From assembly GCA_014729085.1 (NCBI GenBank), contig WJKM01000008.1, positions 163 to 64,162 on the forward strand: 64,000 nucleotides of DNA, written 5' to 3'. Position numbers and translations under genes: made by a program. Below the pieces are notes generated by a model. That model saw only the letters and a list, made by a program, of their open reading frames with translations, had not been told where the DNA came from and ran no database searches. Every line of letters starts with the position of its first letter. Position 1 is the first letter of the stretch. The stretch comes from Candidatus Dojkabacteria bacterium. GTDB lineage: Bacteria > Patescibacteriota > Dojkabacteria > B142 > WJKM01. This document shows, piece after piece, positions 22,484-64,000 of this stretch.

Positions 22484-24499
22484 TTGAAGATCAAACTGAC
22501 TAAAGTATTCTTTATAACGATACTATTTTTATTATCCCCTCTTTTCTTTTCTCTTGCACATGCTAGATCTTATGTTTATGAAGAGGTAAAAGTTGATATC
22601 GAAATCTTAGAAGATACTACGATGATAGTTGAAGAGGAAATGACTTATAAATTTAATGGGACCTATAGAGGAGTGTTTAGAGACATTACACTAACAGATT
22701 ATGAAGATTTAGAGTTTTGTAGAGAAAATCCCGAGTATCAGTGCGGAGGTTTTAACTCTATTGAGGTGCTTGAAGTTAGAGGAGATGAGGGAAAGGTCTT
22801 AAATGAAACTGAGTATACTGTTGAAGAATATTATAATGAAGACTATGCTCAGGATAGATTAAAAATTGACTGGATGTTTGCTCCAGATGGGAATTTTTTC
22901 AATGATGAACTCTTTAAATTTACAGTGAAATATAAAGTCTATGGAGGTGTTGGCTTTTTTGAGGATTATGATTTATTTTATTGGAATACGCTTTTTCCGG
23001 ATCGAGATGTTAATATTAATAATGCAATCGTCAATATTTCACTTCCAAAAAGTATGAGTTTCCAACAGGAAGATTTGAGAGTAGAATCCGATTATGAAGG
23101 AATGTATACCTATGAATATAAAGACTTAACAAATACTCTGGAACTTACAAAACAGGATATCGTTCCCTACGAGGATTTTACCGTTATTTGGAAACTACCA
23201 AAAGGATTATTAAAGGAACCTGCAGAAATTATCGTGAATACACCTTTTCTTCCAATAGATCCAACTTACTTCATAAATGGTACTGAAAGAAAGGCTTATA
23301 ATGGAAGAATAGAAGGAGTTCCGGCTGGAAATATAGAGTTCGAAGCAAGGAGGATAGGATATCAAACTTATAATGAAAGTCTTAATCTATCCGCTGGAGA
23401 AGAAAGGGAAGTTAATATTGATATGTCCCCTACTCTACCTTTCACTATCATCTTAATGTGTGTGATGATTGTCAATTTATTAGGATGTGTTGGAATTCCA
23501 GGAAGTATTCTCTGGATATACATGCATTGGAGACGAAGAGGTAGAGATGTAGATAAACCAACAACTGTTGTACCTATTTTTCAACCCCCAGATGATATAC
23601 CGCCTTATCTATTAGGTTCACTAAAAGATGAGAAGGTTGATATGGTTGATATAACATCTACGCTTATAGATGCCGCATATAAAGGTTACATTAAAATTGT
23701 TGAAATTTCCGAAAAATCCTTCTTCAAAGAGGCGGAGTTTGAATTCATCAAGAAGAGGAATTTTTCCGATCTTGATCATGTGGAAAAAAAGATATTGGAA
23801 GATATTTTTAGTTATAAAGACAGGGTTACAACGAAAAGTCTGAAAAATTCATTCTATCTAAAAATTCCTGGAATCAAGAAAGAAATTTATAAGGAAATGG
23901 TAAACAGAGGTTATTTTAATAAAAGACCAGACCAGGTAAGGAATAAATATATTGGTTTTGCAATATTAATTATTATATTTAGTTTAATTTTGCTAACAGG
24001 TGTTTCTTTTGCTGTTATAGTTTTCACTGGAGTGCCAATAGGTATATGTTTGCCCCAATGTGCTCTTTTATTGCTTGGTGTTGCAATGATTCCAGTAGCT
24101 TTTATTATGCCTGCTAAGACTGCTAAAGGTTCGGTAATCTATATGAAAACTTTAGGTTTTAGAATGTATATGCATCATGCAGAAAGATATCGAGTCCAGA
24201 ATTTGACTCCAAAAACATTTGAAAAATATTTAAGTTATGCAATTGTCTTTGGTTTAGAAGACAAATGGGCCGAAACCTTTAAGGATATATATAAAGGTCA
24301 ACCTGATTGGTATCAGGGACAGGGTAGTTTTTCACCTACAACATTTGTTCACTCTTTAAATAGTATGTCAAGTACCACTGCTTCGGCTATGAGAAGTACT
24401 CCTTCAAGTTCGAGCGGGAGTGGATGGTCTGGAGGAGGAGGTTTTTCTGGAGGTTTCTCTGGAGGCGGAGGCGGAGGTGGAGGAGGAGGAGCTTATTAA
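22484..24499 (+). CDS. DUF2207-family membrane protein with C-terminal Gly-rich tail
   Basis: Signal peptide, a large extracellular N-domain, TM helices, then SSSSGSGWSGGGGFSGGFSGGGGGGGGGGAY, the tail characteristic of DUF2207. Confidence 0.65.
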   Translation: MKIKLTKVFFITILFLLSPLFFSLAHARSYVYEEVKVDIEILEDTTMIVEEEMTYKFNGTYRGVFRDITLTDYEDLEFCRENPEYQCGGFNSIEVLEVRGDEGKVLNETEYTVEEYYNEDYAQDRLKIDWMFAPDGNFFNDELFKFTVKYKVYGGVGFFEDYDLFYWNTLFPDRDVNINNAIVNISLPKSMSFQQEDLRVESDYEGMYTYEYKDLTNTLELTKQDIVPYEDFTVIWKLPKGLLKEPAEIIVNTPFLPIDPTYFINGTERKAYNGRIEGVPAGNIEFEARRIGYQTYNESLNLSAGEEREVNIDMSPTLPFTIILMCVMIVNLLGCVGIPGSILWIYMHWRRRGRDVDKPTTVVPIFQPPDDIPPYLLGSLKDEKVDMVDITSTLIDAAYKGYIKIVEISEKSFFKEAEFEFIKKRNFSDLDHVEKKILEDIFSYKDRVTTKSLKNSFYLKIPGIKKEIYKEMVNRGYFNKRPDQVRNKYIGFAILIIIFSLILLTGVSFAVIVFTGVPIGICLPQCALLLLGVAMIPVAFIMPAKTAKGSVIYMKTLGFRMYMHHAERYRVQNLTPKTFEKYLSYAIVFGLEDKWAETFKDIYKGQPDWYQGQGSFSPTTFVHSLNSMSSTTASAMRSTPSSSSGSGWSGGGGFSGGFSGGGGGGGGGGAY

Positions 24500-24525
24500 G
24501 TTTAAATTACCATGGATTAGAAGAA

Positions 24526-24957
24526 ATGGATCATTTAGCAATAATGAAAAAAAGCTGGGGACTTATTGACAAAATTATCAAAGGAGCAAAGATTGCGGAG
24601 TCAAGATGGTATAAAACAAAAAAAGCACCTTGGAATAGAATTACAGTTGGTGATAATCTATATTTCAAAGATTCAGGGGAAGAAGTTAAAGTTAAAGCTG
24701 ATGTAACCAAGGTTCTTCAGTTTGATAATTTGAATCCATCAAAAAGAAAAGAAATATTAGATCAATATGGTAAGGATGATTTAGGAACTTCAGATCTAGA
24801 AAACCAAATTAGGGAATATACCAAGGATAAAAAGTATTGTATTATTGTATATTTTGAGAATGTAAGGATTCTGAAATCTTTTAAAATAGATAAGACAGGG
24901 TATGGCGCAATGAGCGCTTGGATAGTCGTAGATAATATAAATAAAATTAAAATATAA
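24526..24957 (+). CDS. ASCH/PUA-like domain protein
   Basis: KIIKGAKIAESRWYKTKKAPWNRITVGDNLYF resembles the ASCH beta-barrel N-terminal motif. The track ORF begins at 24424, but that N-terminal extension (RRRFFWRFLWRRRRRW) is an alternate frame of the GGN repeat. Start chosen at ATG 24526. Confidence 0.4.
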   Translation: MDHLAIMKKSWGLIDKIIKGAKIAESRWYKTKKAPWNRITVGDNLYFKDSGEEVKVKADVTKVLQFDNLNPSKRKEILDQYGKDDLGTSDLENQIREYTKDKKYCIIVYFENVRILKSFKIDKTGYGAMSAWIVVDNINKIKI

Positions 24958-28871: not shown

Positions 28872-29021
28872 AAGTAGTAAAAAGTAAAAAGTGCCTGTTA
28901 AGAAGTATGAATTCTCTTACTTTATTATTTAAATTAATTATAACTTATTGTTTAATAATTTAAAATTATATGTACAAACGTAAATTACCATTAAGCTAAA
29001 TCTAGGTGTATAATACTATCT

Positions 29022-29264
29022 ATGTCTAAAGATAATAAAAAGCATAAACCCCAATCAAAATATAAAATAAATTCCGATACAATAATCTCAGATATTGTAG
29101 AGTTATATCCAAAAGCTGCAGAATTGCTTCTAGAGGAGTATGGACTTTATTGTATTAATTGTTTTATGTCTGAATTTGAAACACTTGAGGAAGGAGCAAT
29201 ACGTCATGGTATCGATGGCAAGGATTTTGAGAAACTCTTGGAAGAAGTTAATAATCTTACCTAA
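29022..29264 (+). CDS. DUF1858 (hybrid-cluster-protein-associated redox disulfide) domain protein
   Basis: TIISDIVELYPKAAELLLEEYGLYCINCFMSEFETLEEGAIRHGID matches the DUF1858 CxxC core. Confidence 0.5.
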   Translation: MSKDNKKHKPQSKYKINSDTIISDIVELYPKAAELLLEEYGLYCINCFMSEFETLEEGAIRHGIDGKDFEKLLEEVNNLT

Positions 29265-29397
29265 TTATCCCTTTTACGCTCTAAGTTTAATCCGTTTATA
29301 TATTCTTGTATACTGGATATAGTTAAGGAACTAACGAGCTGAATATATAGAGTAATAAACTGTTAAGAATTCACTATGTTATTTAGGATCTTTTTAT

Positions 29398-52811: not shown

Positions 52812-52880
52812 ATAAATATTTAAGATTGAAAAATATATTTCATTTTAGCCTAATACTAATTTCATGAAAAGCTATAAATA

Positions 52881-52952
52881 AGCTGGCTATGAGATTTGAA
52901 CTCATAACCTTTCCCTTACGAAGGGAATGCTCTACCATTGAGCTAAGCCAGC
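52881..52952 (-). tRNA. tRNA-Thr (anticodon CGU)
   Basis: Minus strand: GCTGGCT-TA-GCTC-AATGGTA-GAGC-A-TTCCC-TTCGTAA-GGGAA-AGGTT-ATGAG-TTCAAAT-CTCAT-AGCCAGC-T. All four stems pair perfectly. The T-loop is TTCAAAT and the anticodon loop has CGT at positions 34-36. No CCA is encoded. Confidence 0.8.
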
Positions 52953-52998
52953 ATTTGTTGAAAATCTATTTTAATAACTAATGGGGTTTATCGTTATT

Positions 52999-53037
52999 TT
53001 CATGTCATCTAAGAATAATATCTAAGATGACATGAAA
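52999..53037. repeat. Perfect 11-bp inverted repeat (TTCATGTCATC ... GATGACATGAA) with 17-nt loop, between tRNA-Thr and the zinc-ribbon gene
   Basis: Read directly: 52999-53009 is the exact reverse complement of 53027-53037. It lies 13 nt downstream of the stop of 53051..53242 (minus) and 47 nt upstream of the tRNA 5' end. Confidence 0.5.
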
Positions 53038-53050
53038 TATGTGGAATAAT

Positions 53051-53242
53051 TTATTTTTCTTCCTCAAGCATTTCTAATGTAAAATTTTCACTCTCATCTT
53101 GATCAATTAGGGTGTATTCGATACCGCAAAATTCACATTCTACTATATCTTTGATTTTTTTTTCTTCAGAAATGGTATTTTCATTTTTACATTCATCACA
53201 GACGTAATTATTTCCATTTGATTTGATTTGAACTTCATCCAT
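53051..53242 (-). CDS. Small zinc-ribbon protein with acidic C-terminal tail (LysW/amino-group-carrier-like architecture)
   Basis: 63 aa with CDEC and CEFC (two CxxC pairs, 18 residues apart), then the acidic tail TLIDQDESENFTLEMLEEEK. It is divergent from the PLP/ATP-grasp genes. Confidence 0.45.
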   Translation of the reverse strand: MDEVQIKSNGNNYVCDECKNENTISEEKKIKDIVECEFCGIEYTLIDQDESENFTLEMLEEEK

Positions 53243-53368
53243 ATTGCTGATAAGTTTGTAATATATTAAATAGTAATGAGTTATATAGACAGTAACTTAA
53301 ATATTATACACAATAGTATAATATCATTATTTTAGATCAATTTAGTTTATACAATTATATAACATTTT

Positions 53369-54295
53369 ATGTTCAAGAAAGGAATTTGGACCTACAGTCA
53401 AATATCTGAGCTTATAGAACCTAAATATCATATTTCTTTGGGGGAAGGCGGAACTGGTATTAATGAAATTAGTTTTGAAGATCAAAAGGTATGCCTTAAA
53501 AGAGAAGATAAAAATCCAAATCAGTCATTTAAGGATAGAAGCTTGGTCTTTCAAATTGCTTTTTATTTACAGCAAGGAAAAAAACGTTTTGTAATTAGTT
53601 CTTCTGGGAATGCCGCAATAAGTGCTCTTTCCTGTTGTCAAAAGTATAATCTAGAACTTGATATATTCGTATCTAACAAAATTGAAGATTATAAATTGAA
53701 AAAAATAACTGATATTATAGATATAAAATTTGTTCATAAATCAAAGAGGCCAAAATCCGATGCAATGAAGTTTTCGAGGAAAACTGGAGCTGTTAACTTA
53801 AGAGGTTCCAAGGATGAAAAGGCGGTAATTGGTTTTCAAACAATTGCCTTCGAACTTATTAAGCAGATGCCAAATGCCGATGCTGTATTCATCTGTTGTA
53901 GTTCGGGTACAAGTACTGTAGGCATTTGGCAGGGTTATCAAGTATATAATTTTGAGGGTATATATCCACAAATTCATATTGTCCAAACAAGTAAAATTCA
54001 TCCAATAGCAAAAGAGTTTGATACTGATTTTAAGATTACCAAATCATCATTAGCAGGAGCTGTTTGTGACCGTGTTGCACACAGAAAATTACAAGTATTG
54101 GAGATTATTAGAGAATCAAATGGATCGGGTTGGGTTGTTAGTGATCAAGAATTAATAATTGTAAAAAAAAATCTAAGTGCAAAGGGAATAGAGATTGAAG
54201 GATATAATGCATATGTTTCATTTGCAGGGTTACAAAAAGCATTAAAAAACGGATTCCAGTTTGATAATCCTGTTTGTATTATTTCGGGTATTTAA
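53369..54295 (+). CDS. PLP-dependent fold-type II enzyme, cysteine-synthase/SbnA/threonine-synthase-like (beta-replacement family)
   Basis: The PLP-lysine motif is LKREDKNPNQSFKDRS. GNAAISALSCC and the glycine loop CCSSGTSTVG match OASS-family positions. At 308 aa it has OASS-like size. Confidence 0.6.
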   Translation: MFKKGIWTYSQISELIEPKYHISLGEGGTGINEISFEDQKVCLKREDKNPNQSFKDRSLVFQIAFYLQQGKKRFVISSSGNAAISALSCCQKYNLELDIFVSNKIEDYKLKKITDIIDIKFVHKSKRPKSDAMKFSRKTGAVNLRGSKDEKAVIGFQTIAFELIKQMPNADAVFICCSSGTSTVGIWQGYQVYNFEGIYPQIHIVQTSKIHPIAKEFDTDFKITKSSLAGAVCDRVAHRKLQVLEIIRESNGSGWVVSDQELIIVKKNLSAKGIEIEGYNAYVSFAGLQKALKNGFQFDNPVCIISGI

Positions 54296-54378
54296 TCCGG
54301 TTATTCAAGAAGAAAAGTTTGCGAGCTAACGATTTTACTAATTCCTCACAGCTTGCTACAGGGTAGTTTATTTTATAA

Positions 54379-55770
54379 TTGAAATTTATGGATGATCTAA
54401 ATTCGATAGTAAAAAAGATCAATAATAAGATAGGGACACGGGACTATTTCTATATTAGTAATGAAGTGGAACATGGTTTAGGATTAGCAGATTTAATACA
54501 TAACTTTAAATCAGTCTGCCTGAATTACGTTGATATAGTAGATTATCTTTATGAGGATAAGAGGGATATATTCTGTTTATTACAGCACAATCAAAAGACA
54601 AAAGTTAGGACATCAGCAGGTTTATTATCCTATTTAACTAGCAATCCTCTACCCTCCTTAATTCATGACTGGAATTTCAATGGTGCATGTTTCCAGACAT
54701 TTAAGATATCTCCTAAGTTTGAAAATTTAGTTTCTGATCTGGGTGGTGTTTTAGTAAATACACCTGCAAGGTTAAATCGTTTGTTTGAATTAAAGATAAG
54801 TCAATCTAGATTACTGGGTAAGGGCAAGATTAATATTCCCAAAACATATATTGGCGTTTTAGGAAAGTTTGATTATGACGATTTGGTAAACAAATTAGGA
54901 AGTAATTTTGTAATTCAATATAATAGAGGCCATACTGGGCAAGGGACAAAGTTTATCAAATCCCAAAAGGCTTTTAATGAAATAAAGGACTTATTTCCCA
55001 AACGTGAAGTGAGAGTCTTAGAGTATATTAAAGGACAAACATATTCTATAAATTGCTGTATGGGCAAGAATAGAATTTTTATAGGAGGTATTTATAAACA
55101 AATTACAGGAATACCTGAATTAACTTCTAAAAAGGGAGCGACAGTTGGGGGAACATGGAATCATGGCCTTCCCGAAGAAATTTTAGAAAAACTAAAGATT
55201 GAAATTTCTAAATTAGAGATTTTATTCAAACAAAATAATTATTTAGGATTGTTTGGATTTGATTTTATTTATAATTCCGAAAATCAAGAGGTAAAAATAA
55301 TTGAAATAAATGCCAGACAACAAATGACTGTTGCATTTAATTCACAGATAAATTTGCTTCAAGGATTAATACCTCTCAATTTACTGCATATTGTACAGAT
55401 TTTAAATGTAGATATAGATGTGGATATTGATGAGTACAATAAAATAGGAATGGAAGAGATTGATGCAGGGCAGCTATATTTTAGAAATCAAGCAGATATA
55501 AGCACAGATATAAAAAAAGAGATAAGAACAGGTGAATACAAACCTCAAATAGATAGTTTTGATCATGATTCTATAATAAAACAAACTTATAAAATAAAAG
55601 AAATATCTGAAGAAAATGTCTTGTTGTATACTAGAAAATACCAAGAAGAAATTTCCCCAGGCCATGAAGTAGCTAGAATTCAAGTAAAAAATAACTTATT
55701 CGATAAATCGGGAAAATTAGATACTAAATATGTAAAGTTTGTTTCACAAGTTGGTAACAGTTGTATATAA
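54379..55770 (+). CDS. ATP-grasp superfamily ligase
   Basis: Motifs FVIQYNRGHTGQGTKFI (Gly-rich ATP loop), RVLEYIKG and GLFGFDFIYNSENQEVKIIEINARQQ (compare E-x-N motif of RimK/LysX). Confidence 0.6.
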   Translation: MKFMDDLNSIVKKINNKIGTRDYFYISNEVEHGLGLADLIHNFKSVCLNYVDIVDYLYEDKRDIFCLLQHNQKTKVRTSAGLLSYLTSNPLPSLIHDWNFNGACFQTFKISPKFENLVSDLGGVLVNTPARLNRLFELKISQSRLLGKGKINIPKTYIGVLGKFDYDDLVNKLGSNFVIQYNRGHTGQGTKFIKSQKAFNEIKDLFPKREVRVLEYIKGQTYSINCCMGKNRIFIGGIYKQITGIPELTSKKGATVGGTWNHGLPEEILEKLKIEISKLEILFKQNNYLGLFGFDFIYNSENQEVKIIEINARQQMTVAFNSQINLLQGLIPLNLLHIVQILNVDIDVDIDEYNKIGMEEIDAGQLYFRNQADISTDIKKEIRTGEYKPQIDSFDHDSIIKQTYKIKEISEENVLLYTRKYQEEISPGHEVARIQVKNNLFDKSGKLDTKYVKFVSQVGNSCI

Positions 55771-55787
55771 ATTAATTGATACAGTAA

Positions 55788-56561
55788 ATGCAAAAGATAC
55801 CTAAATTGCTACAAAAACAAATTGATAAGTATTTTAACCTCCAAATTGGGAGTAAATCGGTAGTTTGTCCTTATTATATTAATCCAAAAGTAATGGTTGG
55901 TAATTTGCGGGTTATGGCAGGTAAAGGAAGTCCGAGAGAAATTGAGCATGAGACAAAAGTATGGGCAAAAGTGAAAGGCTTTGATCTTAAGAAAGCAACT
56001 TCTAAAGAAATTAGAAAATTTATGATTGAAACACATATTGGTATAGATTGCTCAGGATTCATTTCTCAAGTCCTTTCTTTGTATTTGAAGGAAAATAATT
56101 TACCCCCTTTAATCAAACTATTAAAATTCAAGAATAATAATCTCGGTAGTAAAATAAGAAGGTTTCTTAGGCCTATCGAAAATATTGGGGCCAAGACCTT
56201 GACATCCAAGGCAAATACAGTAGAAATAAAAGATTTAAACGATATTTCTGCAGGAGACTTAATTAGAGCTAAAGGAAAACAAAGAAATGCATTTCATGTA
56301 GCAATGATTGTTGAAGTAAAGAGGAATTCGGCAGGTGAGATTCAAATTTTTGAATATGTTAATTCGCATAGATATTATGAGGATCAAAACGGTGTTAGGT
56401 ATGGAAAAGTAGAAATAACTGATCCTGATGGCGAGTTGAAAAAACAGAATTGGTTAGATGAGTTGAATGGGAGAAATTATTTTTTGGAGGATTTATTAGT
56501 GGATTACGAAGATAACGGAATTAGGAGGTTAAGATTTGCAGACGAGATAGGACTGTATTAG
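55788..56561 (+). CDS. NlpC/P60-like (papain-fold) cysteine hydrolase/amidase
   Basis: The catalytic Cys is in HIGIDCSGFISQVL. The downstream segment GDLIRAKGK...NAFHVAMIVEV supplies the His, in the C40-family order. Confidence 0.45.
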   Translation: MQKIPKLLQKQIDKYFNLQIGSKSVVCPYYINPKVMVGNLRVMAGKGSPREIEHETKVWAKVKGFDLKKATSKEIRKFMIETHIGIDCSGFISQVLSLYLKENNLPPLIKLLKFKNNNLGSKIRRFLRPIENIGAKTLTSKANTVEIKDLNDISAGDLIRAKGKQRNAFHVAMIVEVKRNSAGEIQIFEYVNSHRYYEDQNGVRYGKVEITDPDGELKKQNWLDELNGRNYFLEDLLVDYEDNGIRRLRFADEIGLY

Positions 56562-56841: not shown

Positions 56842-56868
56842 TTAGCACTTGACGTTTTGGACTGCTAA
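56842..56868. promoter_or_regulatory. CIRCE operator (HrcA binding site) overlapping a sigma70-like promoter of hrcA-grpE
   Basis: TTAGCACTT-N9-GACTGCTAA has one mismatch per arm against the consensus TTAGCACTC-N9-GAGTGCTAA. The -35 TTGACG is at 56849-56854; a 17-bp spacer precedes the -10 TATATT at 56872-56877. Confidence 0.7.
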
Positions 56869-58282: not shown

Positions 58283-58789
58283 ATGCAAGTATTAATCTAC
58301 TCAGATGTCCATGATAATGTTTTAAATTTACAAAGAGTATTTAGTAAGGCAAAAAACCTTGGTGTTAAGAAAGCTTTGGCTCTTGGAGATTTTGGAAGTC
58401 CTAATGCCATCCGAGCAATTATTGAAAACGGTTTACCAACCAAAGCGGTTTTCGGAAATACAGATGGAGAAAAAGTCATGAGTTTCAAACTGGCTTCTGA
58501 AAGTAATGGTATTTTGTCTATAACTCCTAAAACAAGCGATATTATTGAAATGAGTAATAAAAAGGTATACATTGATCATTTCCCGGATATTGCCCCTACC
58601 TTAGCTGTATCAGGAGAATTTGATGCGGTTTTTTATGGACATACTCATGAAATTGAATATGAAAAATTAGAGAATGGATGTATCCTTGCAAATCCTGGAG
58701 AAGTAGGGGGTTATATCACAGGCAAATCAACGTTTTTGGTTTGGAATACAAAACTGGATGAAATAAAGGAATATGAATTAAACATATAA
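58283..58789 (+). CDS. Metallophosphoesterase (YfcE/MJ0936-like phosphodiesterase)
   Basis: MQVLIYSDVHDN, LGDFGSP, GNTDGE and GHTHEIEY, the calcineurin-like metal-binding motifs. Confidence 0.7.
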   Translation: MQVLIYSDVHDNVLNLQRVFSKAKNLGVKKALALGDFGSPNAIRAIIENGLPTKAVFGNTDGEKVMSFKLASESNGILSITPKTSDIIEMSNKKVYIDHFPDIAPTLAVSGEFDAVFYGHTHEIEYEKLENGCILANPGEVGGYITGKSTFLVWNTKLDEIKEYELNI

Positions 58790-58825
58790 AATTCTCCGTT
58801 TCATTTTTTTAAATTAGACACTTAC

Positions 58826-59872
58826 ATGAAGGATCTAAATATAAACTTTACTTCTGAGAAGATCCGATCTGTTCAGTCTGTATATATTGCTTGTAAGTTG
58901 TTAATGGAAAGAAAATACTATACATATGGTTTTATTCCTGCGACAGACCATTTCTTTCAAAATCAAAAAACGATTGTTTTTCCGGATATTGAATACAGTT
59001 TATACAATAATTTTTGGGAAGCAATAAGGGAAATAAATTTGAAAAAACTTCCTGTAGATGGAAAACTGATTAAATTTTTAAGTGAATCCATAGATCATTA
59101 TTACAAGAAAAGTGAACTTGAAGAAAAAAGACTTGATCTTATTGAATTTTGGAATTCCATTGAAAATGAATTTATTGAATTCCTCAATAATAATTTTCCT
59201 GGATTAAAAGATAAAGAGATAAACCTGGATTTGGGTATTAAGTTATTTGGAGCTCCAATTGACTTTGAAAAGCCTTCCTGTTTTGCACAAAATAAATGTA
59301 AGGGGTATGCAGGAATTCGTTTTGATATGCCTGTTGAAAAAATAATTTTGTCAGTATTTTCCTTATTATTCTCAGATTATTTAAAAGAGAAACAAATCTA
59401 TAGATGGAGAGAACAAAAATCTATACTTGATTTTCTAACAAATACATTTATAGAGGTACTTGGTCTAGACTGCTCAAAGATATTAGGGACAATTGAGTCT
59501 TTAGAACAACTAAAGGTGGAAAAAAAATTAATTAGTAATTCCAGGGAATTCATAAATAAAAATAAAATACCAATTCAGCATATATTCTCTAAAGAGAAAG
59601 GAAAGATTATGCTTTTTGGGGCTTGTTTAAATGATGGTACTTACACTAAAGATGAAATTTCTATTTTAGATGAATTTTTAGAAAAAGATAATAATATATT
59701 AACTTATGATGAAATTGCAGATATAGTATGGGCAGAAAAAGCTACTGAGAGGTTTTCTTTATCTACTATTAGTAAACGTATAGAAAGGCTTAGAAACAAG
59801 CTCTTCGAAGATGGTTTACCAAAATCAGAAATTATTGCAGTCAGAGGAATAGGTTATTATTTGAAAAATTAG
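58826..59872 (+). CDS. Protein with unknown N-terminal domain and C-terminal OmpR/PhoB-type winged-helix DNA-binding domain
   Basis: The C-terminus LTYDEIADIVWAEKATERFSLSTISKRIERLRNKLFEDGLPKSEIIAVRGIGYYL matches trans_reg_C. There is no REC domain at the N-terminus. Confidence 0.5.
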   Translation: MKDLNINFTSEKIRSVQSVYIACKLLMERKYYTYGFIPATDHFFQNQKTIVFPDIEYSLYNNFWEAIREINLKKLPVDGKLIKFLSESIDHYYKKSELEEKRLDLIEFWNSIENEFIEFLNNNFPGLKDKEINLDLGIKLFGAPIDFEKPSCFAQNKCKGYAGIRFDMPVEKIILSVFSLLFSDYLKEKQIYRWREQKSILDFLTNTFIEVLGLDCSKILGTIESLEQLKVEKKLISNSREFINKNKIPIQHIFSKEKGKIMLFGACLNDGTYTKDEISILDEFLEKDNNILTYDEIADIVWAEKATERFSLSTISKRIERLRNKLFEDGLPKSEIIAVRGIGYYLKN

Positions 59873-59884
59873 TTAAGGTAAAAC

Positions 59885-60364
59885 TTAGGGTTCAGATTCG
59901 ATAATCCCTGGATTGCATTTTTCGGAAGAACCGCAATTTACAAATCTTATGTAATTCCCTGCGTCCAACTCTGACTGAAGAAAATCTGCGTAGCTTTGAG
60001 CCTGTGGATTAAAAGTATTATCCTCTGAATTGTATGGATCCCACATCTCCTGAAGTGGAACTCCTTCCTCAGAAAAATGGCCTAGAGTAATATTAGGGTC
60101 ATTTGTAATGCAAAGAGCGACATTGTCTCTAAGATCAATTGGACCGATATTTGCATCTCTTATAGGATCTGTAGCTATTTTTCCTTCATAACAAGTTACT
60201 CCTTCAGTCTCGAAAATTACATCTCCGGGAGCGCTTGATCCATTAACTGGATCTTGAGTTCCATCCGTACTGTCTTCGGGATTTGCTGAGGCACATGCAC
60301 CAAGTAAAGAAGACAAAAATAGTATTAATCCCATTTCTTTCCATGGCAATCTTTCTTGTTCCAT
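59885..60364 (-). CDS. Small secreted lipoprotein, hypothetical
   Basis: MEQERLPWKEMGLILFLSSLLGACASANPEDS has lipobox LGAC. Confidence 0.5.
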   Translation of the reverse strand: MEQERLPWKEMGLILFLSSLLGACASANPEDSTDGTQDPVNGSSAPGDVIFETEGVTCYEGKIATDPIRDANIGPIDLRDNVALCITNDPNITLGHFSEEGVPLQEMWDPYNSEDNTFNPQAQSYADFLQSELDAGNYIRFVNCGSSEKCNPGIIESEP

Positions 60365-60481: not shown

Positions 60482-60508
60482 TTAGCACTTGACTAAAGTG
60501 ACTGCTAA
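60482..60508. promoter_or_regulatory. CIRCE operator overlapping a sigma70-like promoter of dnaK
   Basis: TTAGCACTT-N9-GACTGCTAA, with the same arms as the hrcA copy. The -35 TTGACT is at 60489-60494; a 17-bp spacer precedes the -10 TATATT at 60512-60517. The 40 nt are nearly identical to 56842-56880. Confidence 0.7.
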
Positions 60509-60568: not shown

Positions 60569-62530
60569 ATGGCAAAAATAATCGGAATTGACCTTGGAAC
60601 CACAAATTCATGCATGGCTGCAGTTGAAGGTGGCTCTCCAAATGTTATTTCAAACAAAGAAGGTGGTAGGTTAACTCCTTCTGTAGTAGCACTTACAGCA
60701 GATGAAAAAGACGAAGTAGTTGTTGGTATTACTGCAAAAAATCAAATGGTTACAAACCCTGAACAGACTTTTTATTCAATAAAACGACTAATCGGGAGAA
60801 GATGGGATGATCCTGAAGTTAAAAAAGATAAGGATCTTCTACCATTTGAAATGCGTAAAAGCGATAAAGGCGGTCTTGAGATTCAATATGGAGATGAATG
60901 GGTTACACCAGAAGCAGTTTCTGCAAGAGTTTTAGCTAAACTAAAAGCTGATGCAGAGGCTTATTTCGGAGAAACAATAAATGAAGCAGTAATTACAGTA
61001 CCTGCATATTTTGACGACTCACAAAGACAAGCTACCAAAAATGCAGGAAAGATTGCTGGCTTTGATGTAAAGAGAATTATAAATGAACCAACTGCTGCTG
61101 CTATTGCATATGGTTTGAATGAATCAGAAGATAAGACTATATTAGTTTACGACCTTGGGGGAGGAACTTTTGACGTTTCTATTCTTGAGGTTGGTGAAGG
61201 TGTAGTTGAAGTATTATCTACGAACGGAGATACGCATTTAGGTGGAGACGATTTTGATCAAGAAATAATAAACATGCTTGTCAAGGATTTTAAAAATGAA
61301 CAAGGAATTGATCTTAAAGATGATGCTGCTGCTTTACAGAGATTAAAGGAAGCTGCTGAGGCTGCGAAGATAACATTGTCTTCTAGTGAGAAAACAGAAA
61401 TTAATCTTCCGTATATAACCGCAGATGCAAAAGGACCTAAACATCTAAAGAAAACTTTAACAAGGTCGGATCTTGAGAAACTAGTTGACGACTTGATACA
61501 GGAAACCTTGGAGCCTATTAAAAAAGCCATGAAAGATGCAAAGGTAGAGAATGATGATTTGGATGATATTGTGCTTGTTGGTGGTATGACCCGTATGCCA
61601 GCAATTAAGAGATTAGTAGAGGATTATTTTGGGAAAAAACCACATGAAGGGGTAAATCCAGATGAGGTTGTCGCAGTTGGTGCGGCAATTCAAGCTGCTG
61701 TTCTAGCAGGAGATAGTTCAGTAAAAGACATTACATTACTTGATGTTACACCGCTTACACTTGGAATTGAGACCATGGGAGGAGTTAGAACACCATTGAT
61801 TCCAAGAAATACAACTATTCCAACCGAGAAAACGCAAGTATTTTCTACTGCTGCTGATAATCAGCCAGCTGTTGAGGTGCATGTACTTCAAGGAGAAAGA
61901 GAAATGGCAGCAGACAATAAAACACTTGGTAAATTCATTTTAGATGGAATTCCACCGGCACCAAGAGGTGTTCCTCAAATTGAGGTTACTTATAAAATTG
62001 ATGCAAATGGTATTTTGAATGTTTCTGCAAAAGATAAGGCAACAGGCAAAGAGCAGAATATAACTATTAAAGCTTCTACGCAAATGGAGGAAGATGAGAT
62101 AGACAAAATGGTAGAAGAAGCATCAAAGCATGCAGCAGAAGACAAGAAAAAGAAAGAAAAGGCTGAGATAAAAAACAATGCTGATACATTGGTATTCCAG
62201 ACCAAAAAACTAATTGAAGATATGGGAGATAAAATTGACAAAAAAGACAAAAAGGAATTAGAAAAAGATTCCGAGGCCCTTCAAAAGTTAATTGCAGAAG
62301 AAGATTTTGATAAGGATGAGGTAAAGAAAAAGACAGAGGAGTTAACAAAGAAACTACAGGACAAAGGAGCTAAGATGTATGAAAAAGTAGCTAAAGAAGA
62401 AGCTGCAAAAAAGTCCAAAGAGGAAAAAAAAGAAAAAAAAGACAAGAAGAAAAAAGATAAAAAGAAGGCTAATGATAAAAAAGATGATGACGACGCAGAA
62501 GAAGGCGAAGTAGTTGATGAAGATAAATAA
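60569..62530 (+). CDS. dnaK: Molecular chaperone DnaK (Hsp70)
   Basis: [33 protein letters not shown] and a Lys/Glu-rich C-terminal tail. Confidence 0.95.
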
Positions 62531-62556
62531 GTAGTGTAAAAAGAGTAGTTATTGAT

Positions 62557-62596
62557 AAGCTGGAGCAATCTTGAAGATTGCTCCAGCTTTTGTTTT
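62557..62596 (+). terminator. Rho-independent terminator of dnaK
   Basis: AAGCTGGAGCAATCTT-GA-AAGATTGCTCCAGCTT forms a perfect 16-bp stem, followed by TTTGTTTT. Confidence 0.7.
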
Positions 62597-62705
62597 CAGA
62601 GGAAAAAATTAGTTTGCAGTTGGATGTCTAAATGTAAATTATGTAATTAAAAAATTATTATAAGTTATGATATAATTGTAAAGTTATTTATTAAATTAAT
62701 CAAAT

Positions 62706-62969
62706 ATGGAGCAAGACATAAGAGAATTGGATCTTCGAATGAATAGTGCTGAAGGAGGCGGGTTAGTTGCTACTTCCGTTAAACCGCCTTATTGTGCTCT
62801 AGCATGTAGCAATCCTGATGCAGAGGCAGTTATAGACTGTCCGACACTATCTATTAATTGTCTCGATTGCACCCGTCTTTCAAATTTAAGAGGTGATCGT
62901 TCTGATGAAAAACTATTTGAGATTATGGATGCAATTAGACAAGATGGTTATGCATATACTTCACCATAA
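62706..62969 (+). CDS. Small Cys-rich hypothetical peptide (87 aa) in a GC-elevated island
   Basis: MEQDIRELDLRMNSAEGGG-LVATSVKPPYCALACSNPDAEAVIDCPTLSINCLDCTRLS... has six Cys. A GGG follows an EL-containing N-terminal segment, which is leader-like. Local GC is about 44%. Confidence 0.3.
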   Translation: MEQDIRELDLRMNSAEGGGLVATSVKPPYCALACSNPDAEAVIDCPTLSINCLDCTRLSNLRGDRSDEKLFEIMDAIRQDGYAYTSP

Positions 62970-63324
62970 TAAATTTATAGCTCATATCATTCTTTTCATT
63001 TTTATAGAATTGTAAATTATGATCTACTTTCAATCAAATACTTGGAATATAGAAACTTTACAATGCGTCAGTTGCTATTTTGATTTATTACGGAGGATTG
63101 TCTTTGTCAACATTGTGGGGATGGTGGTGACTTTGGAAGAGTGAGAGAACAGTTGAAGAGTACAGATGAGAGATTGGTAATTTGTGCAACAAAGGGGAAA
63201 CGGTGTGAGGAAGTATGTGTTTTCGGCTTGGACTAAGTCAACTAACATCTGCAGGTTTAACTACAATTATGCCTGAGTTTGTATAGTATTATAACCTGAA
63301 ATTAATTGTACGAATAAAAGATAT

Positions 63325-64000
63325 TTAATTCTCCCTCATCTCAATATAATATTCAAATGAATCAATATCCCACGCAACTCTTTCTATTACATCGGTTAAT
63401 TTAAAATGAAATCCAAATGCATCTGCCTCCTGGGTACTATTGTTGGAGCAGTCTACCTGCAGGTGAATTCTTTGAGACTGTCCATCTTTTGCTACATTGA
63501 GTTCAATAAATTTCATTTTTTCGGACGTTGTACAGTGGATTCCAAAATTATGAGATGTCATACTTATACCCTCTTCCAAAATAGTATGGGAATCATTTCT
63601 TTTCATCATAAAATTATATACAGCTTTTGGTTTTTCAGGTTCTGGATCTAGAGGAGTATAACTGTTGTGAATGATTTGAATAATATGGGCTACTTCTCCC
63701 CTGTTGGTTATGTGTTTTACATTGGCTTCGGTAATAGTTGGAGGGCGAGCATTAAATAAATCCATACGGTTTAAGTATTCCATAAGTTCGGCATTTTTAT
63801 CTATATTATGATTTTCATCAAGTGTGCGCATTGCTATCTTCAAAGCTTCTCCGTATGTAATGTTATTTTCTGGTTTGAAAGTTCCATCTGTAAAGCCTTT
63901 AATTATGTCTTCTTCTTTTGCTACACAAATATATGTGGAAAATGGGTGGCCGTCATAATCCCAGTTTTGACATTCTTCTCGTTCCTGGAGTCCTGCTGTG
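63325..64000 (-). CDS. SLH (S-layer homology) domain-containing surface protein, N-terminus beyond window
   Basis: The reverse frame is open to position 64000: ...CQNWDYDGHPFSTYICVAKEEDIIKGFTDGTFKPENNITYGEALKIAMRTL matches the SLH consensus (GIIxGYxDGTFxPxxxITRAEfa). The track start at 63843 is an internal TTG. Confidence 0.5.
   Translation of the reverse strand, partial: TAGLQEREECQNWDYDGHPFSTYICVAKEEDIIKGFTDGTFKPENNITYGEALKIAMRTLDENHNIDKNAELMEYLNRMDLFNARPPTITEANVKHITNRGEVAHIIQIIHNSYTPLDPEPEKPKAVYNFMMKRNDSHTILEEGISMTSHNFGIHCTTSEKMKFIELNVAKDGQSQRIHLQVDCSNNSTQEADAFGFHFKLTDVIERVAWDIDSFEYYIEMREN

Follow-up and report, generated by a model that had tools for sequence, protein, structure and literature searches.

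Organization of the locus

The sequence analysed here, hereafter the window, is a 64-kb stretch of a contig from a MAG of Candidatus Dojkabacteria (CPR). Near its right end, two convergent genes delimit a slot of 794 nt (62531-63324). The left anchor is dnaK (60569..62530, plus strand; 653 aa in the ORF list), whose product is 100% identical to the NCBI entry 'molecular chaperone DnaK [Candidatus Dojkabacteria bacterium]' and 77-80% identical to its next relatives. The right anchor is the 3' part of a gene for an SLH-domain surface protein (63325..63999, minus strand), with its stop codon at 63325-63327 and a frame that stays open until it runs off the window end. Both anchors are conserved. 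The upstream neighbours encode a metallophosphoesterase, a winged-helix (Trans_reg_C) regulator and a 159-aa ORF without Pfam or NCBIfam match, and the only tRNA gene of the window (tRNA-Thr) lies 10 kb away.

Within the slot, dnaK is followed by an intrinsic terminator (62557..62599, plus strand) made of a perfect 16-bp hairpin (inverted repeat I1, 100% complementary) and then TTTTGTTTTC. This is the sole terminator-like site within 62400-63500, and a scan of this interval predicted no intrinsic terminator for the SLH gene. Further along the plus strand, a promoter-like site (62647..62676; TTAAAA, 18 nt, and the extended -10 TG-n-TATAAT) lies 30 nt 5' of the ATG of ORF87 (62706..62969), which encodes 87 aa and ends in TAATAA. 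Next come an AT-rich spacer of ~26% GC in which all frames lack coding signal (62970..63062) and a G-rich, C-poor patch (63070..63240; GC 41.5%, GC skew 0.58), hereafter patch 2. Read from the sequence, an ATG with five further codons (MRQLLF) and then TGA (63063..63083, plus strand) precede, in the same frame, an open frame of 50 codons with six Cys (63084..63236, plus strand), probably not a native gene. The 355-nt spacer from ORF87 to the SLH gene, where both transcripts converge, is the third-longest inter-ORF gap in the window of an otherwise compact genome.

Composition of the interval

An earlier note on this DNA had described a GC-raised, G-rich and C-poor island of about 0.6 kb in this region. 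The local GC values that it gave (about 42-44%) are right: we find 44.0% in 62706-62805 and 42.0% in 63101-63200, for a window mean of 31.4%, and the G-rich string that it quoted is located at 63116-63153. At the 720-nt scale, however, there is no coherent island. The GC content of 62600-63320 is 33.1%, a value equalled or exceeded by 29% of all 720-nt windows, and the composition profile resolves two GC peaks split by the AT-rich spacer, ORF87 being the first and patch 2 the second. As 100-nt windows, these peaks rank merely in the top 2.4% and top 5.2%. The mean GC content is 32.4% for genes, with a maximum of 40%, and 24% for intergenic DNA. Enrichment in G with depletion in C applies to the second peak (skew 0.60), but not to ORF87, whose skew of 0.12 equals the window average. 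A strong purine skew of the whole interval was not recovered, the purine content over 62600-63320 being 53.8%.

The segment 63084-63236 contains 52 G and 13 C, and its skew of 0.60 falls in the top 0.7% of 153-nt windows. Windows of 150 nt that combine a GC content of at least 40% with an absolute skew of at least 0.5 amount to 0.4% of the window. Eleven other places share this composition, all inside long ORFs and mostly G-rich on the sense strand, which leaves the second peak as the sole extragenic one. In the reading that we favour, the 'island' is two unrelated short patches within lineage-specific filler.

ORF87 and its coding signal

The Cys-rich ORF reported at 62706-62969 is indeed present, with five Cys among 87 residues (C30, C34, C45, C52 and C55), compared with a genome Cys frequency of 1.1%. 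It combines a start codon, 3-base periodicity and host-like codon usage. Its ATG has an AT-rich leader, and the promoter-like site agrees with the consensus at 10 of 12 positions, with TG before the -10 element; TATAAT is the most enriched hexamer upstream of the genes of the window (5.4x expectation). The codon log-likelihood score of ORF87 (0.38) is typical of real genes and was reached by 0 of 3000 shuffles, by 0.1% of off-frame windows and by 0.4% of spurious open frames. Periodicity is marked (chi-square p = 2.6e-5), and synonymous codon usage stands at the 55th percentile of real gene windows. With 40.2% GC, ORF87 has the highest GC content among the 57 genes of the window, and its GC3 is 20.7%, for a gene mean GC3 of 23.6%. 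The high GC resides in codon positions 1 and 2; it reflects the amino-acid content (Ala, Asp, Arg, Cys, Pro) and does not point to foreign DNA.

The NCBI annotation lists ORF87 under a MAG of Candidatus Dojkabacteria and calls its product hypothetical (GF362_02395). This was the sole entry retrieved, and no true homologue exists among the 5.8 billion protein clusters or 1.84 billion representatives searched. One further HMMER match, P0122, is spurious, since the score sums weak matches to the 12 repeats of a Cys-free protein of 1656 aa. A match to PHROG 3680 (E = 0.037) was too weak to retain, and tblastn found no match in phages. AlphaFold2 yielded a model with a pLDDT of 45. Foldseek searches of the PDB with this model and with that of the 50-codon frame gave no match at E < 1.

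ORF87 thus looks like a genuine, natively adapted orphan gene encoding a small cytoplasmic protein with five Cys, which may bind metal with these residues as ligands. It belongs to the lineage-specific ORFan small protein genes of variable CPR slots. Like the ORFans described from such slots in CPR/Patescibacteria, it is short, hypothetical, devoid of homologues outside its own genome, host-like in its codons and flanked by conserved anchors. We see no essential difference from them; the five Cys and the top GC content in the window are traits of its own.

Variability of the slot and horizontal acquisition

The dnaK and SLH anchors are conserved as neighbours in four relatives (L081, L083, L084 and L087), whose SLH (PF00395) orthologues downstream of dnaK are 44-55% identical to the one studied here and share the same C-terminus. 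In relatives, the next gene past the SLH gene encodes a class II aminoacyl-tRNA synthetase (HGTP_anticodon; in L081, GlyRS_ins_1 and tRNA-synt_2b domains). The slot itself holds greA, a Trans_reg_C gene and an AIM24 gene in L081, a 180-aa gene of no known family in L083 and L084, and two PRA-PH genes in L087. The synteny comparison proposed as a check therefore identifies the segment as lineage-specific and missing from the loci of relatives: blastn and tblastx searches of 87 related loci with 62531-63324 returned nothing, and neither did tblastx against the window. With a DnaK identity of only 80% for the nearest relative, this absence sets neither the direction nor the age of the change.

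The proposal of a horizontally acquired cassette of Cys-rich peptides finds little support in these data. ORF87 is host-like and not foreign at its synonymous sites, and it matches no family. Neither an integrase nor a transposase was found near the slot, and neither ORF87 nor the 50-aa peptide matched any phage, plasmid or viral-contig sequence. The 50-codon frame is atypical at synonymous sites (GC3 36%, 2.6th percentile), which fits non-coding DNA as well. We also rejected a mobile element with flanking repeats: the only candidates are AT-rich two-copy matches of 14-18 nt with inconsistent spacing, at chance level by our own estimate.

The 50-codon frame in patch 2

The Cys-rich frame without ATG at 63084-63236 translates exactly as the earlier note had quoted, six Cys included, and no ORF of at least 60 aa lies in 62970-63324, where ORFs reach at most 57 aa on the minus strand and 41 aa on the plus strand. 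Is this frame a gene? It most likely is not a working native gene. A second small Cys-rich protein encoded in patch 2, now or until very recently, is in our view unlikely. Such a protein could take three forms: the product of a 57-codon gene starting at ATG 63063 and interrupted at codon 7, where the TGA would be a nonsense mutation or an error of the assembly; a 31-aa product starting at GTG 63141; or a recently acquired or newly arisen ORF with codon usage unadapted to the host. In each case it would form a two-gene unit with ORF87 from the ORF87 promoter, since no terminator separates the two.

Several observations speak for such a gene. The probability of 50 open codons at the composition of patch 2 is 0.07-0.09 in shuffles, and six of the eight TGY triplets fall in the frame, at least six Cys being found in 0.7% of open shuffles, a test picked after the Cys had been seen; jointly, the open frame and the phased Cys codons have P = 0.0006, again chosen post hoc. 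ATG 63063, located 21 nt upstream of the 50-codon frame, has an AT-rich leader like the other genes, none of which shows a Shine-Dalgarno site. The raw codon score reaches the 22nd percentile of real windows and is attained by only 3.7% of spurious open frames, AlphaFold2 proposes from the single sequence a compact beta-alpha-beta-beta model (mean pLDDT 61.5), and the composition class of patch 2 is elsewhere seen only inside genes.

Other observations speak against such a gene. The TGA at 63081 cuts off the in-frame ATG at codon 7, and no ATG, GTG or TTG follows until the GTG at 63141. TGA is a genuine stop in this genome: it terminates six of the 57 long ORFs, and the long ORFs are uninterrupted under table 11. 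The frame has no 3-base periodicity (p = 0.65), a level matched by only 3.4% of real gene windows; its codon choice at synonymous sites is that of spurious open frames (2.6th percentile of real windows); and once stops are excluded, its codon score is explained by composition and does not rise above shuffles (P = 0.14). G is enriched at all three codon positions (42%, 34% and 28%). Controls traced the apparent 'coding-like' status of the frame to its lack of stops and to its composition. Simple codon scores can thus be misled by a G-rich stretch in an AT-rich genome, which may mimic coding potential, and stop codons, composition, periodicity and synonymous usage need separate controls in such genomes.

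Homology searches agree with these statistics. Neither the 50-aa frame nor a repaired 57-aa version has a homologue in a search of 5.8 billion clusters, in Pfam, NCBIfam, PHROGs or the PDB, or in phages, metagenome DNA and viral contigs, and the frame shows no similarity to ORF87. Two metagenome matches are spurious, being antisense to an ORF of a high-GC contig that we take, from its translation, to be pseudouridine-synthase-like. A tblastn match in L074 (E = 0.009) was likewise treated as spurious; the contig is a high-GC one from Planctomycetales, and the matching stretch sits ~0.6 kb upstream of dnaK, on the other strand. A decayed gene, as the earlier note suggested, is conceivable for the second frame, whose in-frame ATG is closed by a TGA at codon 7. 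The frame has neither homologue nor coding periodicity, and repairing stops or frameshifts reveals no known protein of the kind expected for a simple pseudogene. The second frame is in register with ORF87, and TAATAA and TGA are the only stops that separate the two; a single decayed gene of 177 codons was nevertheless rejected, because 63031-63076 loses the coding signal and TAATAA resembles a genuine end of a gene. We also rejected the idea that a frameshift had split the 50-codon frame from an upstream part beginning at ATG 63019 (frame A), since that part is non-coding-like (score -0.12, 0.8th percentile). The product of such a fusion would carry the arrangement CxxC...CxCxxC, which is zinc-ribbon-like.

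Patch 2 as a Rho-utilization site

Read on the minus strand, patch 2 would give an unstructured RNA, rich in C and poor in G, whose composition is that of a rut site. Windows of 78 nt across 63079-63228 have C/G ratios of 4-5.8, 25-29 C and 19-20 YC dimers. These rut-like windows begin ~97 nt past the stop codon of the SLH gene, and 95% of shuffles are more structured than the minus-strand RNA (z = +1.71). Patch 2 might accordingly act as a Rho-dependent terminator of the SLH gene, its RNA loading Rho so that transcription would stop before colliding with that of ORF87 and dnaK. We consider this functional role rather improbable. The lack of a predicted intrinsic terminator for the SLH gene is consistent with it, as is the absence of periodicity, which fits a non-coding compositional element, and the likeness to known rut sites extends to the length (~150 nt), the many YC dimers, the low predicted structure and the position, ~100 nt beyond the stop codon, behind a gene with no intrinsic terminator. 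On the other hand, neither the 64-kb window nor the 87 loci fetched, which represent a small part of any genome, gave a tblastn match to E. coli Rho, and no literature on Rho in this group was found. Purine-rich coding DNA trivially yields such a composition on its antisense strand: the other C-rich minus-strand windows here are antisense to plus-strand genes, and no second intergenic C-rich patch occurs downstream of genes in the window. The element is not conserved behind the SLH orthologues either, which adjoin other genes across gaps of 37-134 nt.

A two-gene unit, a non-coding RNA or peptide precursors

A bolder version of the second-gene reading would make ORF87 and a 57-codon Cys-rich ORF (63063-63236) a lineage-specific two-gene unit for small metal-binding or redox proteins directly behind the heat-shock gene dnaK, the second gene being expressed despite its UGA and not yet host-like in codon usage. 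The UGA would have to be bypassed by read-through or re-initiation, or be an assembly error, and the second gene would have to be young or foreign enough to keep non-host codon usage. We regard this as very improbable. If true, it would provide a candidate micro-protein that a CPR bacterium has only just evolved or acquired. Recoding of the TGA at 63081, for example as selenocysteine, was rejected, since TGA ends long ORFs here and no tRNA-Sec was found; the TGA is followed only by a weak hairpin rich in G-U pairs.

The earlier note had also considered a structured ncRNA. Rfam, folding and conservation all argue against it, and patch 2 is not a structured RNA. The cmscan search that had been proposed returned nothing at E <= 10 in 62970-63324; over 62400-63500, the matches at this threshold were the dnaK terminator hairpin, sR52 (62483-62525, at the dnaK 3' end) and mir-3327 (62907-62986, at the ORF87 3' end). 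The tRNA-Thr alone passes the Rfam gathering threshold in the whole window, and ARAGORN found no tmRNA. Folding energies relative to shuffles gave z = +0.68 for 63040-63320 and 0.00 for 63070-63245 (both plus strand), and blastn found no match to patch 2 in 87 related loci, plasmids or phages from which conservation or covariation could be assessed. A plus-strand non-coding RNA of an undescribed class, be it an sRNA or a 3' UTR by which ORF87 is lengthily extended, is a most doubtful reading for the same reasons. Its GC content, far above that of intergenic DNA, and its location in one of the longest gaps of a compact genome would fit such an RNA, as would co-transcription with ORF87, expected because no terminator lies between them. 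Against it stand, besides the Rfam and MFE results, the imbalance between G and C, which allows few G-C pairs, and the lack of any related sequence in any collection. Seven GGA motifs occur where ~5 are expected from composition, by our own count not a significant excess, and a CsrA sponge was dismissed for this lack of enrichment. RNase P was dismissed as well: by eye, GGGGAAACGGTGTGAGGAAG recalls the J11/12 consensus, but no RNase P model matched and the C content is far too low.

Finally, ORF87 and the second frame are almost certainly not precursors of modified Cys-rich peptides (RiPP or bacteriocin, for instance SCIFF/ranthipeptide-like or with a double-glycine leader). Both peptides are short and Cys-rich, and the acidic N-terminal part of ORF87 ends in GGG (residues 17-19) ahead of the Cys part. 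SCIFF stands for 'six cysteines in forty-five residues', and the second frame is likewise very short, with six Cys in 50 residues. However, the search against RiPP and bacteriocin models returned no match for either: Pfam (E <= 1) and NCBIfam (E <= 10) yielded no precursor model or any other family, and the same was true of PADLOC-independent RiPP or bacteriocin models and of the PDB. In ORF87, the residues that double-glycine leaders conserve (hydrophobic and Glu, as in ELxxIxGG) do not fall in register. In contrast to SCIFF/ranthipeptide and other Cys-rich RiPP precursors, the second frame has no start codon and no adjacent radical-SAM maturase, its Cys are not clustered in a C-terminal core, and it comes from a different phylum. 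No maturase, protease or transporter gene, whether radical-SAM, LanM/LanBC, cyclodehydratase or C39-peptidase ABC exporter, adjoins the slot within the window, which reaches 0.7 kb downstream, and relatives without ORF87 also have the conserved PALP and ATP-grasp pair that lies 7 kb upstream.

Other identities were rejected as well. The gene dnaJ often follows dnaK, and CQHCGDGG, downstream of dnaK, resembles one unit of the DnaJ zinc-finger repeats (CxxCxGxG). A dnaJ remnant is nevertheless not indicated: there is one imperfect motif where DnaJ has four, no J domain is present, tblastn with E. coli DnaJ was empty in the window, and the fetched Dojkabacteria loci have no dnaJ beside dnaK. A remnant of the 180-aa slot gene of L083 and L084 was rejected for lack of similarity. 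A GGAGG at 63092 ahead of an 8-codon Trp-rich mini-ORF was dismissed, because a Shine-Dalgarno-like match precedes at most two of the 57 ORFs and the motif is meaningless in this genome; the two GGAG cases, before 24424 and 63843, are both doubtful starts.

Discussion

The explanation that we favour, and to which we give about an even chance of being right, is that the locus consists of two unrelated patches in lineage-specific filler, with ORF87 a genuine orphan gene and patch 2 neither a structured RNA nor, most likely, a working gene. It builds on the observed anatomy of the slot, its composition and codon statistics, the lack of homologues and of a signal of RNA structure, and the variability of the slot among relatives. 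Under this explanation, ORF87 would be transcribed from its own extended -10 promoter just behind the dnaK terminator. Patch 2 would be ~170 nt of G-rich, C-poor sequence at the place where the ORF87 and SLH transcripts converge, perhaps a leftover fragment from gene turnover in the slot. The SLH transcript running through it would be C-rich, G-poor and unstructured, and could load Rho, thereby ending before it runs antisense into ORF87; any such terminator role is, like the relic origin, our conjecture.

The finding is one of ordinary genome filler, neither an acquired island, nor a peptide cassette, nor a structured RNA. That a candidate 'island' has been cleared, with no horizontally acquired cassette, RiPP locus or new structured RNA behind it, matters little in itself. 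The gain is modest: CPR genomes have one more orphan gene for a small protein with good support, the caution on codon scores given above applies to AT-rich genomes, and the conserved, convergent dnaK and SLH genes enclose a variable slot that holds a different cargo in each Dojkabacteria lineage.

A composite locus downstream of dnaK

dnaK (60569-62530, plus strand) is followed by a terminator, a perfect 16-bp hairpin with a T run (62557-62599), and then by a promoter-like site whose -10 element is extended (62647-62676), by the Cys-rich gene ORF87 (62706-62969, plus strand, ending in TAATAA) and by a gap of 355 nt (62970-63324). DnaK and ORF87 each have an NCBI counterpart of 100% identity in a metagenome-assembled genome of Candidatus Dojkabacteria (WS6, CPR). 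Beyond the gap lies the 3' end (from 63325) of a minus-strand gene, hereafter the SLH gene, whose frame is open up to the window end. Its SLH-type product is 44-55% identical to SLH-domain (PF00395) proteins encoded 3' of dnaK in relatives, and the alignment reaches the same C-terminus.

The earlier note described 62600-63320 as one GC-elevated, G-rich and C-poor island of 0.6 kb, and this observation is partly confirmed. Its numbers are right: 44.0% GC at 62706-62805 and 42.0% at 63101-63200 versus 31.4% for the window, no ORF of at least 60 aa in 62970-63324, and a 50-codon Cys-rich frame with the translation given. The island, however, is incoherent. GC over 62600-63320 is 33.1%, a value equalled or exceeded by 29% of all 720-nt windows, and a spacer of ~26% GC divides two peaks, one corresponding to ORF87 and the other (peak 2, ~63070-63240) to the surroundings of the 50-codon frame. 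Since genes of the window have a mean GC of 32.4% and intergenic DNA of 24%, any coding stretch stands out against 'about 30%'. The description as G-rich and C-poor applies to peak 2 (52 G and 13 C in 63084-63236; skew 0.60, in the top 0.7% of windows) but not to ORF87, whose skew of 0.12 is average. Windows of 150 nt with at least 40% GC and an absolute skew of at least 0.5 represent 0.4% of the window. They occur at 11 other places, each within a long ORF (G-rich on the sense strand in 9 cases), which makes peak 2 a true outlier in composition among non-coding DNA.

Other compositional extremes were noticed in the window. The DnaK C-terminal tail (62400-62527) consists of ~45 residues, nearly all Lys, Glu or Asp, which explains the purine and skew peak at the 3' end of dnaK; several more GC-skew peaks also occur at 3' ends of plus-strand genes. 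The spot of highest GC (24379-24611, 51%) contains GGAGG/GGAGGC repeats coding for a Gly-rich tail, located where ORFs 22484-24499 and 24424-24957 overlap by 76 nt, an overlap that suggests a mis-set start or a frameshift. The two longest inter-ORF gaps, 28872-29397 (526 nt) and 52812-53368 (557 nt), both separate divergent genes; the latter contains a tRNA-Thr(CGT) at 52881-52952, and the former has no Rfam match at the gathering threshold.

ORF87 behaves as a native, lineage-specific gene

With a codon log-likelihood score trained on 56 long ORFs of the window, ORF87 scores 0.38, the 66th percentile among real in-frame windows. A value as high occurs in only 0.1% of off-frame windows and 0.4% of spurious open frames, and never among 3000 dinucleotide shuffles. 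Its 3-base periodicity is strong (chi-square p = 2.6e-5) and its synonymous codon usage lies at the 55th percentile of real windows. By all these measures, ORF87 behaves as a native gene. Its GC content (40.2%) is the highest among the 57 genes, but its GC3 (20.7%) is ordinary, so that the excess reflects amino-acid content and not foreign DNA. The proposal of a horizontally acquired island accordingly fails for ORF87 at synonymous sites, and the one feature in its favour, that distant relatives lack the segment, is a weak one. The ORF87 leader is AT-rich and devoid of a Shine-Dalgarno site, as are those of nearly all genes in the window. GGAGG occurs mostly within long ORFs, and TATAAT is the top enriched upstream hexamer, at 5.4 times expectation. 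The genome appears to start translation without Shine-Dalgarno pairing. GGAG precedes 2 of 57 long ORF starts (24424 and 63843), both doubtful.

ORF87 retrieved only itself from 5.8 billion clusters in a word-indexed search, and itself plus one spurious repeat protein from 1.84 billion representatives in an exhaustive HMMER search. It had no match in Pfam, NCBIfam, PDB, phage genomes or viral contigs and one weak match in PHROGs (E = 0.037), and its single-sequence AlphaFold2 model was uninformative (pLDDT 45). We conclude that ORF87 encodes a real, lineage-specific small protein. Inspection of the translation by eye revealed an acidic N-terminus and no signal peptide, which suggests a cytoplasmic location; in such a location, its five Cys may bind metal. 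A cassette of Cys-rich peptides, also envisaged originally, is not supported: when compared with RiPP and bacteriocin precursors, SCIFF-type six-Cys peptides included, neither ORF87 nor the 50-codon frame has a model match or an adjoining maturase or exporter.

The nature of peak 2

It is unlikely, but still worth serious consideration, that peak 2 is a second gene or a recently disabled one. The 50-codon frame (63084-63236, plus strand) has a raw codon score of 0.22, a value attained by 0.3% of off-frame windows and by only 0.5% of shuffles. A coding reading based on this score was rejected, as controls traced the signal to composition and to the lack of stop codons; once stops are left out, the frame scores no higher than mononucleotide shuffles (P = 0.14). 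The frame lacks 3-base periodicity (p = 0.65), a flatness seen in only 3.4% of real 50-codon windows; its synonymous usage ranks at the 2.6th percentile of real windows, as is usual for spurious open frames; its GC3 of 36% falls in the top 2% of real windows; and G is enriched at every codon position (42%, 34% and 28%). No ATG, GTG or TTG was found in it before GTG 63141. ATG 63063, in the same frame, encounters a TGA at its codon 7, and TGA is a genuine stop in the window: 6 of 57 ORFs terminate with it, and under the standard code the sequence is tiled by long ORFs. What speaks for a gene is that the frame is open over 50 codons, as in 7-9% of shuffles, and that 6 of its 8 TGY triplets are in frame; just 0.7% of open shuffles have at least six Cys, in a test picked after the Cys had been seen. 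AlphaFold2 proposes a compact beta-alpha-beta-beta arrangement (pLDDT 61.5), but the five models spread widely and the fold has no match. No homologue was detected in the 5.8-billion-cluster protein search, PDB, phage genomes or viral contigs. Two DNA-level matches among 241 million metagenome contigs were spurious, being antisense to another ORF (pseudouridine-synthase-like, as we take it from its translation) in a high-GC contig. Peak 2 may still be a decayed second gene, as suggested previously, but the reading as a pseudogene of a known protein fails, nothing being homologous.

ORF87 and the 50-codon frame share no similarity. They lie in the same reading frame, offset by 378 nt (62706-63236), and TAATAA (62967-62972) and TGA (63081-63083) are the only breaks in 177 shared-frame codons. 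A single ancestral gene seems unlikely, because the coding signal falls to non-coding levels in 63031-63076. Peak 2 also includes a mini-ORF (63092-63130) with GGAGG, 7 nt, a TTG start and 8 codons (MSTLWGWW, then stop), three of them Trp. Its likeness to a trp leader peptide is superficial, and it is probably a by-product of G-richness, as Shine-Dalgarno sites are unused in this genome and no plus-strand gene lies downstream.

A selected function as a Rho-utilisation (rut) site, suggested by composition, seems still less probable. Read from the SLH strand, 63079-63228 has the composition of a rut site, with a C/G of 4-5.8 and, in each 78-nt stretch, 25-29 C and 19-20 YC dimers. This C-rich stretch begins ~97 nt beyond the SLH stop codon, its RNA is predicted to be unusually unstructured, and no intrinsic terminator was found for the SLH gene. 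Against this, the available sequence shows no rho gene, our literature search yielded nothing on Rho in this group, the element lacks conservation, and the same composition elsewhere in the genome is merely the antisense of purine-rich genes.

Peak 2 is not a structured RNA, the third explanation initially offered: it has no Rfam match at E <= 10 and no conservation, the predicted folding of its plus strand is no more stable than that of shuffles (z = +0.68 and 0.00) and that of its minus strand is less stable (z = +1.71), and 52 G versus 13 C allow few G-C pairs. In the whole window, tRNA-Thr alone attains the Rfam gathering score; a tmRNA is absent as well.

The heat-shock locus and its variable slot

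We compared the locus with contigs of the nearest DnaK relatives (only 77-80% identity in the collections) and 80 species representatives. Synteny with the relatives covers hrcA, grpE and dnaK and also, further upstream, three genes (PALP, ATP-grasp and one uncharacterised). In most Dojkabacteria loci, hrcA, grpE and dnaK are close together. In the window, this trio (PALP PLP-dependent enzyme, ATP-grasp_3 and a ~260-aa uncharacterised gene) occupies 53369-56561; the closest relatives keep it (L083, 1-2501; L084, 1-2382) with an additional DUF4153 gene ahead of hrcA. CIRCE-type inverted repeats (TTAGCACT-N11-ACTGCTAA) are located upstream of hrcA (56842-56868) and dnaK (60482-60508), with 4 matches (both strands at each site) versus 0.02 expected by chance, which would fit HrcA control of both units. 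Where grpE was detected, dnaK starts at most ~50 nt from the grpE match in most Dojkabacteria loci. In the window, three genes separate them (58283-60364), encoding a metallophosphoesterase, a 348-aa protein with a C-terminal Trans_reg_C winged helix and, on the minus strand, a 159-aa uncharacterised protein; L015 and L016 also carry an insertion here, of ~2.5-3.4 kb, and in L082 and L087 the place is taken by other genes (HD, NUDIX). With E. coli DnaJ as tblastn query, dnaJ was detected neither anywhere in the window (64 kb) nor, for the Dojkabacteria loci among L001-L024, at up to 6 kb from dnaK; the only loci with a dnaJ were L021, L025 and L026, all from other phyla.

The SLH gene is convergent to dnaK in the window and four relatives, but the contents of the slot between them change from case to case: greA, a Trans_reg_C gene and an AIM24 gene in L081, a minus-strand 180-aa uncharacterised gene in L083 and L084, two PRA-PH (MazG-like) genes in L087, and ORF87 with the gap in the window. 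In a fifth relative (L082), gap and pgk genes follow dnaK and the SLH gene is absent. The segment 62531-63324 resembles nothing in the fetched loci, plasmids or phages at the DNA or translated level, no mobility genes or meaningful flanking repeats were found around it, and neither donor nor transfer mechanism is visible. The changing contents of the slot and the lack of similar sequence elsewhere argue that the segment is lineage-specific cargo in a turnover-prone slot. The original interpretation is partly supported: the segment is lineage-specific and has one real five-Cys gene, but neither the non-coding RNA nor the peptide cassette is supported. Among the many orphan small proteins of CPR genomes, ORF87 is an ordinary case, and the finding as a whole is ordinary.
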